From Eledone cirrhosa (Eukaryota): DNA of 64,000 bases. Location of the stretch: assembly GCA_964016885.1 (NCBI GenBank), contig OZ024740.1, forward strand, positions 347,510,001 to 347,574,000. The letters are read 5' to 3'. Every line of letters starts with the position of its first letter. Position 1 is the stretch's first letter. The notes under the pieces are model-generated. The model did not search any database, was not told the origin of the DNA, and saw only the letters and a list, made by a program, of their open reading frames with translations. Below, one piece after another: positions 2,401 to 43,478 of this stretch. The position numbers and the translations under genes were made by a program.

Positions 2401-2545
2401 TTATTGCTTTTGAAAACAGCTGGTGATATGCATGTAAGTAAAAATTCTCTTTATCTGATATTTTGTAACTAACCTTACATAGATCAATAAAGGAGTATAA
2501 CTACAATGTATTATCATCATCTAGAAACGATCGTAAAGCAGTGAA
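2401..2545 (+). ncRNA. Type-I hammerhead, U3-A8 core variant, 107-nt helix-II domain
   Basis: TTATTGCTT-TTGAAAA-...TGGTGATA...TATCATCA...-GAAA-CGATCG-TA-AAGCAGTGA. Confidence 0.7.
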
Positions 2546-2785
2546 GTATATCTCTAATGACTTGATATTTTATTTCATTGTTTTAACTTATATATATATA
2601 TATATATATATATATATATATATATATATATATATATATATATATATATACATGTAAAGTTATATTTAAAATTGTTGGGTTACAACTAGTAAATATTTAT
2701 AACTGATATAAAAGCACTCGACAAATATTTGGAGTATATTTACAATATTAAATAAATGGAAAACTATATTTATAAAACCATATTT

Positions 2786-2850
2786 ATTTCATTATATATA
2801 TTTCGGGGATATCATATTAACAATATGCTATGCCTTCATCAGACAAAATA
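2786..2850 (-). ncRNA. Hammerhead-like motif in pLTR fragment
   Basis: Minus: CTGATGA-AGGcatagCATATT gtt AATATGatatcCCC-GAAA-TATA-TA. Helix I is weak. Confidence 0.5.
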
Positions 2851-3420
2851 CAATATAAACAGTTTTATAGATAAATAGATTCGACATACAGTGAAGTATA
2901 TCTCTAATGACTTGATATTTTATTTCATTGTTTTAACTTATATATATATATATATAAATATATATATATATATATATATAAAGGTTATCATATACATAAA
3001 ATGAAAGATATATATATGTTGCAGCTGTTCACTTTTAAGCTCTATGAAGAATTAATAAATTAAAATCAAAAAATCAGAGCATTATATCATAAATCATGTC
3101 TTTAGAATCATCAGATATTAAAGTATATACTATTTCTTCTTCTAATTAGCATAAGTAACCATATACAAAATCAAATCTAGCAAGCTTTAAGAATAAATTT
3201 TCTTATGGGGAAATCTCTGACAAACAATCGATCGTAGCCTCTTCGCGGCAGCCCCGTTCCATTATTTATCGAACATTTCGACAGCATGTAGACTCCGACT
3301 AAATATACCATCAATCACACACAATTAGTAGTAAAATTAAACTTAGAAGAAATGCGCACATACCGTAATTATATCTCTACCATGGTTTCTTCCTTATTTA
3401 GGACATCCAAATAATATGAA

Positions 3421-3630
3421 TTTCCAGAGTTAGGAGATAAACTCAAAATCAGACATTTAGTTTTTCAATCCGATCCCGCCAAATTTAGATTCAAAAATGG
3501 CTAAAATTCGCTATGAAGCTGTGTTCCAGCCAGAGAGAAAGAGTGTGATTGGTTGCTTACGGCGGGATCGGATTGAAAAACTAAATGTCTGATTTTGAGT
3601 TTATCTCCTGATGAAACCTAACTCTGGAAA
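3421..3630. repeat. Inverted repeat (arms 3421-3480 / 3561-3630) of a pLTR carrying a split hammerhead
   Basis: Arms are reverse complements. The right arm has TATCTC-CTGATGA. The left arm (-) lacks the core but continues to GAAA-CCATGG-TA-GAGATA (3372-3389). Confidence 0.8.
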
Positions 3631-3809
3631 ACGCAAACAACATATTATGTATTTATACAAGTATTTATGTTTATTTTTTTATGACTCATTCCGGGCCATA
3701 CTTCTTAATTGCATCGACCAAAACGAAGCTTTTTCAGTTGCGCACCATTTTCTGATTTCTTTCCTCTATAACGATAAAAAAAAACACATTATGTATATAC
3801 ATGCATATA

Positions 3810-4740
3810 CCCTAAGAGTCACAGAGGAGGGGTCTATATACTCCACATTTTACAGGGAGAATGCCTGCAGAGACATTTTTGGGTACCACTAAACTGCCCT
3901 TCATTACAGGGCCAGAATGGCTTATATACGAAATGAGATATCGCGGATACTCAACAGATTCAGCAGGTGTAGCGACAGAAATTACCAGCTCCGTGGAACT
4001 CCAAAGAGTTCTCACCAAACTCAGTAATGCCAGGGCAGCAACACGTAAAAGAACAGGGTGAACACGTACCCCTAACGATATTTGCTATCTAAAGCTGCCG
4101 CATTTCAATGAGAAGACGAAAGCTGCCATCAGACAAACCATCCATAAGAAGAGTTCCTCTGACAAGGGCAAGTTTCATCACTGTCAATTCAGTACCTGTC
4201 CGGATAGTAACCAGGGATCAATTATGGATATTTAACAAGATTTAATGGAGGGAGGGGGGGGGGGGGGCAATAACATCGATTCCACATTCGAACTAGATCT
4301 TGCTCCTTGGAAATTTCAATTCATGTGTGGGAAAGGACGACCACATCTGGAGTGTTTTAGGACTTCACGGCATGAACAAGATGAATGCCAATGATCTTCT
4401 CCTTTTGCAATTAATTATGCACGGAGTTTGAGCTGGTCGTGTCCAATAATTCTTTTCGGTAAAAAGAGATCCACTTGCCAACATGGATACACCCGAGATC
4501 CAAACATCGACTCATCTTGGAATATATCGCCACCAGGAAGAGAAACCTCCATGATATCTGCTCTTTAAGAGTAATGCGTGGTGTAGAATGTGATAAGGCC
4601 CATAAAATCGTACGTATCAAGATAAAAGTGCAGATCAGAGAAAACATGAGGGCAGCCGAGGTATAACTGCCAAAACGTATAGATGTGTCCAAACTGCAAA
4701 GTTTAAAATTAAGAGATGCTCTTGATAGAACTTGGGTATA
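3810..4740 (+). pseudogene. Degenerate RTE/BovB-type LINE, AP-endonuclease region
   Basis: 4295-4700 translates to LGNFNSCVGKDDHIWSVLGLHGMNKMNANDLLLL...TWIHPRSKHRLILEYIATRKRNLHD...MRGVECDKAHKIVR, matching RTE APE motifs (GDFNARVG, TWMHPRSKHW, TDH). The 5' limit is approximate. Confidence 0.8.
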
Positions 4741-41138: not shown

Positions 41139-41146
41139 TATAAATA
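41139..41146 (+). promoter_or_regulatory. Candidate pLTR TATA box (CCAAT at 41085-41089)
   Basis: CCTATAAATACC ~25 nt upstream of the hammerhead; motif evidence only. Confidence 0.4.
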
Positions 41147-41168
41147 CCATATTTATTTTTTGATACCC

Positions 41169-41219
41169 AGATTCCTGATGATTTCTAATGAATGAAACAG
41201 TTCTAGTCCTGTAGAATCT
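41169..41219 (+). ncRNA. Canonical-core type-I hammerhead, GUA triplet (mirror copy 36841-36891, -)
   Basis: AGATTC-CTGATGA-tTTC taat GAAt-GAAA-CAG ttctagtc CTG-TA-GAATCT. Confidence 0.88.
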
Positions 41220-41340
41220 CATCTATATTAAAACTATATATATATATATATATATTGTTATACTTTGGGAGGGTCATGTTGCCAATAAGAAACACACTCT
41301 CCAGGTGCTTTCACTCCAATTTATTATAAATTAAATTTAT

Positions 41341-42282
41341 AAAATTTATGATCCCGATGGCTGGGCTAAAGTCGTTTCGACACCTGTTTCTGGACTATTA
41401 CCCAGTCTACTACCCTAAGTATTGAGTACTCTGGTGTGTTATGGTCCATCTGGTTCTTTACCACACCTCCTTCGTTATATATATATGTATATATATGTAT
41501 ATATATATATATATATATCGTTTCTGAATTTGTTTAGCAAGATTCTTTATCTCAAAACGTCTGTTGAAACCGATATTGTTATACATTGGGAGGGTCATGT
41601 TGCCAATAAGAAACACACGCACCAGTTGCTTTCACTCCAATTTATTATAAATTAAATTTATAAATTTAAGTATTTATAAATTTCCGGTTGGTTGGTTGGT
41701 TGGTTCCACAACCGGACGGTTTTTCATATATTGTCCAAGTTCTTTCGTCACACATTATGTGACCTCTTCAGTGACTGGGGATTCTTTTCTTTGTTTTATG
41801 CTTCTGCTTTGTTCGGTCCTACGCCGTCTTGTTTTGTGTGTGTTGACAACAGTCACTGAAGAGGTCACAGAATGTGTGACGAAAGAACTTTGACACTATA
41901 TGAACAACCGTCCGGTTGTGGAACCGGCCAACCAACCAACCGAAAATTTATAAATTCTTAAATTTATAAATTTAATTTATAATAAATTGGAGTGAAAGCA
42001 ACTGGTGCGTGTGTTTCTTATTGGCAACATGACCCTCCCAAAGTATAACAATATCGGTTTCAACAGACGTTTTCAGATAAAGAATCTTGCTAAACAAATT
42101 CAGAAACGATATATATATATATATTCATATATATACATATATATATAACGAAGGAGGTGTGGTAAGGAACCAGATGGACCATAACGCACCAGAGTACTCA
42201 ATGCTTAGGGTAGTAGACTGGGTAATAGTCCAGAAATAGGTGTCGAAACGACTTGAGCCCAGCCATCGGGGTCATACATTTT
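41341..42282. repeat. Inverted repeat, ~435-bp composite arms (41341-41777 / 41850-42282)
   Basis: Arms are diverged reverse complements, each containing pLTR family B, a (TA)n tract and pLTR family C. Confidence 0.9.
41852..41894 (+). ncRNA. Minimal hammerhead motif (family C; related GTCACA..TGTGAC-GAAAGAAC at ~54680-54712)
   Basis: GTCA-CTGAAGA-gGTCACA gaatg TGTGAC-GAAA-GAAC-TT-TGAC. Confidence 0.65.
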
Positions 42283-43478
42283 CCTATATATATATAATAC
42301 CAGTTTCAGCATTATATTCATTATCAATTGTGGATATGCAGAATATTGTTAAGTTGCATATTTGTACAAATAGTGATGATAATAATAATAATAATAATAA
42401 TAATAATAATAATAATAATAATAATAATAATAATAGGGAAGAAGACGCACGAGGTGACGGAGGTCATGAAATCGCTCCCGTAAGTTTTGAATTTTTAACA
42501 TATTTAAACCATTTGTGAAATAACAACTCTTAGTACAAATGCTACGTAAAGCACCCGGCTTGAGCCCCAAAAAATTCGGACCCAAAATATATTGTTATAA
42601 GGCTCAAATATTCAAATATTCAACTTTGTATTGTACACTGTATATCCAAAAAAGAAAATGGCTATAAATGGAAGAAGAACCCCCCCCCCCCCTCCTCCTC
42701 TGTATACACTATATAGAACAGCCAAACTCACCAACACCAGAAACTAGATACACCACCCACCCTATCACCTGTGTACACTAAACCACCACCGATCACTACG
42801 GCCATCATTACAACCATTATCCCATCACCGCCGCCACCACCCCTTCACTCCTTCACTGCTGCCACCGCTACAGCACCATCGCTACAGTAATACGGTCACA
42901 TCACCGCCACCACTGCCTCGGTATCGACATCACCACCACCACTGTCTCAGTATCGCTACCGCCGCCAGTCTCCCACTTCTTCTTTTAGCTGGCTGCTGCC
43001 ACCACATTATAGAATCCCTACTGCTAAAAAAGAGGAAGGCATCAAAATATATAGATAGACTCAAAAGAAAAAAGAAAAAATAAACAACAAAAGCAGCACA
43101 GCAACAACAGTAAAAAACGAGAAAAACAGAGAAAAACAAAAACAAAAAAAGAAACCCCCAAAACGTAAAGAAAATAAGAATGAAGAGAGAGGCAGGCGGA
43201 CGGACAGAGAAGAGGGGGGAAAAAGTAAAACTTAAAAAACAAAAACTAAGTCAGACATTCGAATACTACATTACAATGAAACTTATGCTTATTCATTTTT
43301 GGGGCCCTTTCTGCCCGTGTGTTTGTTTGTTTATGTGTGTCCGTATACAGCGTGGTGATAATGCCACACAAGGGCCAAGTGGGATGGCGGATCCACAGAT
43401 GGCTATGTAAACATACATTCGCCAATCCTCGATAAGAGTGTTTAAATATCGAACATAAACAGTTCGAATAACGGTGAA

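Follow-up and report, generated by a model that had tools for sequence, protein, structure and literature searches.

Candidate hammerhead motifs with a U3-A8 core pair and their link to Penelope-like elements in Eledone cirrhosa

Having analysed a 64-kb window of AT-rich, microsatellite-rich repeat DNA from Eledone cirrhosa (64,000 nucleotides of contig OZ024740.1, positions 347,510,001 to 347,574,000; mean GC ~36%), we report two motifs, at 2410 (+) and 13077 (-), that are well-formed, likely self-cutting type I hammerhead motifs with U3-A8 in place of the C3-G8 of the CUGANGA core. Coordinates are those of the window, and each motif is named by the position of its nucleotide 3. In its catalytic conformation the hammerhead pairs positions 3 and 8. 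Nucleotides 3 and 8 make a Watson-Crick pair in all the well-formed hammerheads that we found, both in the window and at related loci of Penelope-like elements (PLEs). In our reading, to which we give a probability of about 0.82, the 13077 motif is the 3' hammerhead of a Hydra-type PLE, the 2410 motif likely comes from a related element, and the U3-A8 swap was likely fixed in source elements that needed the 3-8 pair. The data support selection on the 3-8 pair across PLE families, not activity of each copy; most plausibly, selection acted on source elements, whose genomic copies inherit the core.

U3-A8 hammerhead motifs and their element context

The heptamers TTGAAAA at 2410-2416 (+) and 20777-20783 (+), TTGAGAA at 13077-13071 (-) and TTGATAA at 42327-42321 (-) all read U3...A8, that is, Watson-Crick partners at positions 3 and 8. 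An earlier sequence-only reading had proposed them as hammerhead cores in four contexts; all four are present, the last lying one base from where it had been placed. TTGANAA is common: the window has 72 occurrences and 200 block shuffles give 57 ± 7, so structure must decide. A type I hammerhead descriptor with positions 3, 7 and 8 left free was run over all 583 NTGANNA cores in the window and over the 5,721 cores of nine null windows. Seven cores scored at least 30: 2410 (+) with U-A (38, the top score in the window), 7016 (+) with C-G (35), 33712 (+) with C-G (34), 13077 (-) with U-A (33), and 2842 (-), 1587 (-) and 1190 (-) with C-G (31-32). The null gave 0.56 cores per window at this threshold and none at 32 or above. 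At 24 or above there were 8 of the 583 cores (6 C-G, 2 U-A and no mismatched pair), compared with 2.6 per null window. The remaining two U3-A8 sites scored 16 (20777, a level reached by 6% of null cores) and 8 (42327). A looser descriptor without stem I, was devised after these two had been seen and calibrated on 60 shuffles. Under it 20777, like its mirror 20696, shows a single defect, a level met by 0.27 cores per shuffled window and by no U-A core in any of the shuffles; 42327 shows two, a level met by 2.1 cores per shuffled window, of which 0.23 are U-A.

2403..2542, + strand: type I hammerhead, U3-A8, core 2410-2416; score 38, fold z -4.2
12989..13082, - strand: type I hammerhead, U3-A8, core 13077-13071; score 33, minimum free energy (MFE) fold
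20777..20807, + strand: probable decayed U3-A8 hammerhead; score 16
42298..42327, - strand: possible decayed U3-A8 hammerhead; score 8, near chance

The 2410 motif has a 7-bp stem I (2403-2409/2536-2542), a long stem II whose first pair is C.A, GAAA at 2524-2527 and a minimal stem III formed by a perfect 8-nt palindrome (2527-2534); the predicted cut falls after A2535 and is followed by ~50 nt and then (TA)n. In the 13077 motif, stem I (13082-13078/12993-12989) is joined by a stem II closed by G-C, GAAA at 13016-13013 and a full stem III (13013-12995) with a near-palindromic loop, and the cut is predicted after C12994 (GUC). Its predicted MFE fold is a three-way junction with a constrained fold probability of 0.47; its folding energy is no better than that of shuffles (z 0.41). 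The A15.1-U16.1 pair and H17 are present at both sites (GAAA...UA at 2410, GAAA...UC at 13077). The proposal of hammerhead cores thus stands for these two intact motifs and has to be scaled back for the others. At the 20777 site stem II is clean over 5 bp and a CCGG palindrome is present, but GCAA (20798-20801) stands where GAAA is required and stem I has only 3 bp; the site is mirrored at 20696-20666 (-) inside a ~390-bp inverted repeat (~20541-20932) between (TA)n tracts, and is probably the relic of a decayed hammerhead with A13>C. At 42327, where stem II is mismatched, stem I has 2 bp and (TA)n begins right after the putative cut, a decayed hammerhead is possible at a level near chance.

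Some features of these sites stand on their own. At 1190 (-), 2410 (+) and 33712 (+), stem II begins with a C.A mismatch in place of G10.1-C11.1. A 50-bp stretch of the tail of the 2410 element is present as an exact direct repeat (2539-2588 and 2889-2938), and the two copies flank the C3-G8 hammerhead element 2842 (-), an oppositely oriented insert. A 37-nt satellite at 49755-52101 (63 copies, 97% match) has as its source the sequence preceding the 42327 site, and its unit terminates at the putative core.

The 13077 motif forms the 3' end of a PLE on the same strand, ~1.1 kb 3' of the protein frame P0002, and is followed by (TA)n, the sequence in which PLE insertions of the window lie.

14185..15501, - strand: reverse transcriptase (RT) and C-terminal GIY-YIG frame of a Hydra-type PLE (P0002), 5'-truncated and stop-free, by motifs
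13083..14184, - strand: pyrimidine-rich 3' untranslated region (UTR) from the PLE frame to the hammerhead
27273..27411, - strand: short 13077-family copy from GAAA to the 3' strand of stem I plus tail, without positions 3-9
56115..56255, - strand: short 13077-family copy, 3' half only
42148..42284, no single strand: short 13077-family copy, 3' half only, two parts inverted; mirror at 41341-41475

With an E cutoff of 0.001, a search with P0002 found 1,691 homologs, of which the top ones are 38-45% identical and often ~700 aa long. The residues C290-x-C292-x5-C298 (a CxCX5C linker), C388xxC391 and C416xH418 are invariant in the homolog alignment, CCHH is absent, and the homolog consensus carries DKT, which with RWK marks the N-terminal RT part in the clade; P0002 and the second frame of this type, P0001, are both 5'-truncated. 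The Hydra-type assignment comes from setting these motifs against the clade description in PMC8557442, the protein tree being one without named clade references. Pfam gave no match on P0001, and an exact look-up of three window proteins returned none.

Of the five 13077-family copies in the window, four comprise just the 3' half of the motif. The ~140-bp copies (27273-27411, 56115-56255, 42148-42284 and 41341-41475) share a near-identical start inside stem II and keep only the substrate half, i.e., GAAA, stem III and the cut site; possibly they represent a non-autonomous short element, or targets for trans cleavage. A degenerate pattern for this 3' half had 0 matches among metagenome contigs.

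The sequence-only reading had also placed the 2410 motif (called the 2401 motif there) and a C3-G8 motif starting at 33702 in related families. The latter likely belongs with P0001.

28531..30090, + strand: Hydra-type PLE frame P0001, RT and GIY-YIG by motif, 43-47% identical to P0002
33702..33856, + strand: C3-G8 type I hammerhead, core 33712-33718, 10-bp stem I from 33702; score 34
28165..28538, - strand: inverted copy of 33472-33845, 100% identical (374 bp), adjoining the P0001 frame

The 33702-33856 motif is likely the pseudo-long terminal repeat (pLTR) of the PLE at 28531-30090, because its inverted copy adjoins the P0001 frame; an inverted copy beside the frame is the usual PLE layout (PMC8557442). 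Where this copy meets (TA)n (28163-28165), the predicted cut is no more than 1-2 nt away. As single instances, the junction at 28165 looks copied from cleaved RNA, and a similar junction lies at 42298. The 13-mer CTAGAAACGATCG occurs at 2521 (+), 33832 (+) and 28166 (-). Local alignments between window motifs were dominated by (TA)n and were therefore redone on core-free segments. With cores excluded, stem II and loop II of 2410 and 33712 aligned with z 3.4-3.8 against shuffles and p 0.005 against 3,000 real window segments of like GC; the flanks alone showed no significant likeness (p 0.13 upstream, 0.07 downstream). This alignment bears out the proposed kinship and indicates that the two motifs are distant relatives, beyond the shared 13-mer. 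No PLE frame was found near 2410. Because of its likeness to 33712 and its (TA)n flank, the 2410 motif was likely left by a PLE related to Hydra-type elements.

The 3-8 pair across related elements

We used an alignment of P0002, P0001 and 34 homologs to fetch 90 related loci, 77 from metagenomes (the best 80 of 526 stretches were kept) and 13 from a genome collection. Ten loci with fewer than 120 nt after the protein match were set aside, and 80 were scanned on the sense strand within 600 nt. The descriptor again left positions 3, 7 and 8 free, and was tuned to the clade after we had viewed the misses of stricter versions (23/80 matches), which demanded too much of stem III length or of the first pair of stem II. 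A hammerhead was found in 53 of the 80 loci, against 0.18 per replicate in shuffles, and the 3-8 pair was C-G in 50, U-A in 2 (L043 and L047), G-C in 1 (L021) and mismatched in 0. Position 7 varied freely among the 49 distinct motifs (33 U, 11 A, 4 G and 1 C), and when position 8 was reshuffled the chance of all cores being paired was 1.8e-5, kinship being ignored. The G3-C8 locus, on a metagenome contig, has intact stems and carries the motif in both direct repeats around its frame (L021:277-335 and L021:2780-2838); its sister L007 is C3-G8. For natural G3-C8, a literature search, outside which most subscription papers lay, found only engineered cases.

The 53 loci and the two window proteins, with none dropped, were placed on an unrooted tree of 55 PLE proteins, in which P0001 was labelled by way of its inferred link to 33712 and the letter make-up of P0002 is odd. 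Every swapped row is neighboured by C3-G8 rows on starred branches. At least 4 changes are needed at position 3, another 4 at position 8 and 4 when the pair is counted as a unit, and a single clade of the three U-A rows was rejected (p-AU 1e-59). The 3-8 swaps are four separate events on the protein tree. Recurrent paired swaps with 0 mismatches in 53 related motifs provide comparative evidence for selection on the catalytic fold.

The scan also brought out other features of these loci. In many of them stem II begins with U.U. Of the 34 loci with enough sequence, 28 have a conserved hairpin of the GCTC...GAGCAC type at a distance of 74-105 nt past position 3 (0.24 by shuffle); it is seen among loci L006-L089, with a variant in window hammerhead families at 7127 (+), 2735 (-), 27344 (-) and 56186 (-), and is a candidate RT recognition or start element. 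The PLE-bearing contigs of L078-L090 stand in records titled as bacterial metagenome-assembled genomes and are probably binned animal DNA. No PLE relatives were found in viral contigs.

The course of events that we propose runs as follows. PLE transcripts would self-cleave at the 3' hammerhead, after N17, and U3-A8 would have been fixed in source elements since the 3-8 pair is needed for this cut. One change at position 3 or 8 would cripple cleavage, and lineages carrying it would seldom spread; only double changes would persist, hence families with paired states only. The 13077 motif can probably fold alone and would probably cleave as a monomer; stem III of 2410 is an 8-nt palindrome, so a dimer would be needed, and this motif would probably cleave in that form. 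Copies dispersed in (TA)n would inherit the core and decay afterwards, as 20777 and 42327 may have done.

A number of observations weigh against this reading. Rfam gave no match at gathering score anywhere in the window, C3-G8 motifs included, and its hammerhead families gave none at E up to 10 on 12977-13120 or 2380-2580; across the whole window at E up to 10, microsatellite-driven miRNA matches appeared among the 150 of 354 matches listed. Since Rfam also misses the C3-G8 motifs, long stems II rather than the 3-8 swap may explain these misses. The 27 of 80 loci without a hammerhead match could conceal odd cores, and a sign test on the 4 independent pairs (p 0.125) cannot reach significance. 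Both steps of the swap, C>U and G>A, are transitions of a kind that AT-rich genomes favour. Metazoan PLE hammerheads have been found to cleave weakly (PMC4209133), and cleavage by the anole PLE hammerhead is dispensable for insertion in vitro (PMC11167929).

The copies of the 13077 family belong to the same side of the balance when taken at face value. Four sequencing runs were aligned to 12960-13420 at 80% likeness. Two runs under one organism label gave depth (8,108 contigs in X2; 13,497 reads in X23), and X12 and X14 gave 5 contigs each, with positions 3 and 8 uncovered; in the X2 contigs the 3' half was ~20-30x deeper than positions 3-9. U3 made up ~76-83% of the family in raw reads and contigs, and C3 accounted for 24% of the depth in X2 (33 contigs) and for 60/353 X23 reads. 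No G8 change stood among the listed rows, 50 further rows not being among them, so that about a fifth of copies would form a C3.A8 mismatch subfamily; in favour of our reading stand the U3 majority and an A8 subfamily among the loose ends of these reads and contigs. The tally itself is suspect: of 105 T none shows T>C, T>A or T>G is listed at 15 places, and A>G appears at 20/166 A (p 5e-5), and the G8 partner, T>C on the tallied strand, could have gone unlisted. As this class of change is missing, the C3.A8 reading was neither accepted nor dismissed. Peaks of X23 read ends at 13027, 13042 and 13086 fall at AATT; we read them as probable restriction cuts of a restriction site-associated DNA (RAD) library rather than as element ends or cleavage.

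That the double change reflects selection for catalysis and not decay had been claimed for all four sites. The claim gains from the 53/53 paired loci and the four separate double changes, with positions 3 and 8 showing no independent variation across families; it is overstated for 20777 and 42327, whose defects are expected to stop cleavage and which therefore cannot show selection, and among the copies of the 13077 family, where C3 lacks a listed G8 in about a fifth, the suspect tally at face value leans the other way, towards the independent variation at positions 3 and 8 that this earlier reading had named as refuting it. If the U3-A8 cores were instead dead C3-G8 copies with independent C>T and G>A changes after insertion, both steps would be transitions toward AT in a window of ~36% GC, and the other defects of 20777 and 42327 and the polymorphic position 3 of the 13077 family would fit. 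Against decay, single-mismatch cores are absent from the 8 high-scoring window motifs and the 53 related loci. Moreover, U3 is the majority state of the 13077 family, the 13077 motif lies with intact stems behind a stop-free frame, and G3-C8 takes two transversions that are identical in both L021 repeats. We regard AT-biased decay as largely refuted and very improbable. Chance matches in AT-rich DNA at all four sites are less probable still: the abundance of TTGANAA, the silence of Rfam, the near-chance 42327 and the weak 20777 under the full descriptor agree with such an account, which is refuted for 2410 and 13077 by scores above all 5,721 null cores and by PLE context and relatives.

The main rival is that the 3-8 pair is kept for RNA folding or for binding by the PLE protein in template recognition, while cutting by the motif in vivo may be poor or absent. 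In the anole element, hammerhead mutants left insertion in vitro unaffected, the PLE protein was required for cleavage, and no read had its end at the cut site (PMC11167929). The unusually long stems II and the C.A closure at 2410 point the same way, as do the 13077-family copies, most of which lack positions 3-9 and are yet far more abundant. On the other hand, the 3-8 pair belongs to the catalytic conformation, with which the anole mutants are consistent (PMC11167929), the entire catalytic core is kept together with the NUH site, and the inverted copy at 28165 ends 1-2 nt from the predicted cut, in one instance. We consider a role in folding or binding alone unlikely, and prefer fixation of U3-A8 in source elements that needed the pair to self-cleave. 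A bolder form of this preferred reading, which we hold tentatively and at somewhat short of an even chance, is that Hydra-type PLE hammerheads crossed the C3-G8 fitness valley at least 4 times, G3-C8 included, and that the U3/C3 mix of the 13077 family is a swap in progress. If true, the crossings would offer a natural test of selection on self-cleavage in PLE transposition in vivo, though cleavage is dispensable in vitro, and the 13077 family would reveal which intermediate carries the swap.

Other hammerheads and repeats in the window

Four further C3-G8 cores fit the type I hammerhead descriptor.

7016-7022, + strand: C3-G8 core, score 35, aligning along its length with the 2842 (-) motif
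2836-2842, - strand: C3-G8 core, score 32
1581-1587, - strand: C3-G8 core, score 32
1184-1190, - strand: C3-G8 core, score 31
34457-36077, - strand: fourth PLE, of another type, frameshifted, with a CxxxxCxxC linker (Pfam RT and GIY-YIG matches at 35780-34460)

The window holds four PLE fragments, three of them mutually related (28531-30090 (+), 15501-14185 (-) and 24453-25392 (+)); no hammerhead was found 3' of the frameshifted one. LINE-type RT frames lie at 43479-46868 and 21375-23617. A large inverted repeat at 41341-42282 contains C3-G8 hammerhead-like cores at 41856 (+) and 41771 (-), with scores of 27 and 23, together with nested inverted copies of the short 13077-family element. At 36819-41242, a 526-bp inverted repeat of 99.8% identity surrounds a 2.9-kb (TA/TG)n tract, and each arm bears a CTGATGA core with a weak stem II (41175 (+) and 36885 (-); score 23).

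Relation to known hammerhead systems

U3-A8 in PLE hammerheads is already known with the same heptamers (PMC4209133), and the gain here is incremental: new at most are the Hydra-type cases, the recurrence on the tree and the natural G3-C8 PLE copy outside the window. Searches fixed on CUGANGA, like the Rfam models, miss such motifs. The role of PLE hammerheads is still described as unclear (PMC8557442). A contact between loop I and loop II is often absent in PLE motifs and one U3.G8 core is reported from Saccoglossus (PMC4209133), and cleavage as dimers has been proposed for these motifs (PMC4209133, PMC6765202).

The closest parallel is offered by the Cercyon PLEs of Schistosoma mansoni (Cervera and De la Pena 2014, PMC4209133), which likewise bear type I hammerheads with U3-A8 covariation in their terminal repeats, with ~1,300 hits, mostly solitary truncated copies. 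UUGAUAA and UUGAAAA cores are given there beside a C3-G8 sister family with near-identical stem II in S. japonicum (Fig. S3). In contrast to these minimal hammerheads, the host element in our window is Hydra-type, stems II are much longer (~55 and 107 nt from core to GAAA), 13077 has a full stem III, and 2410 carries a palindromic insert of 6 nt as well as C.A at the start of stem II. With the Hydra clade of C-terminal EN+ PLEs (Craig et al. 2021, PMC8557442) the elements share the CxCX5C linker, CxxC, CxH and the lack of CCHH, as well as DKT in full-length homologs, insertion in (TA)n and a 3' hammerhead. The available text of that paper calls its hammerheads canonical and names no 3-8 swap, and the 3' UTRs here are long: 1.1 kb, and ~3.6 kb in the case of P0001 should 33712 be its repeat.

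Natural core variants collected earlier (Perreault et al. 2011, PMC3088659) have U3-A8 in common with our motifs, a covariation cited as active in vitro; in the portion available only U3-A8 is named, without G3-C8, and not in PLEs. The Poseidon PLE of Anolis carolinensis (Frangieh et al. 2024, PMC11167929) is alike in that cleavage depends on the 3-8 pair: either change by itself, C3G or G8C, abolishes cleavage, and both together restore it in part, so that an engineered G3-C8 core is partly active. Its natural core is C3-G8 and it belongs to a different PLE clade, whereas the elements described here are of Hydra type, with U3-A8 at 13077 and G3-C8 in a related locus.

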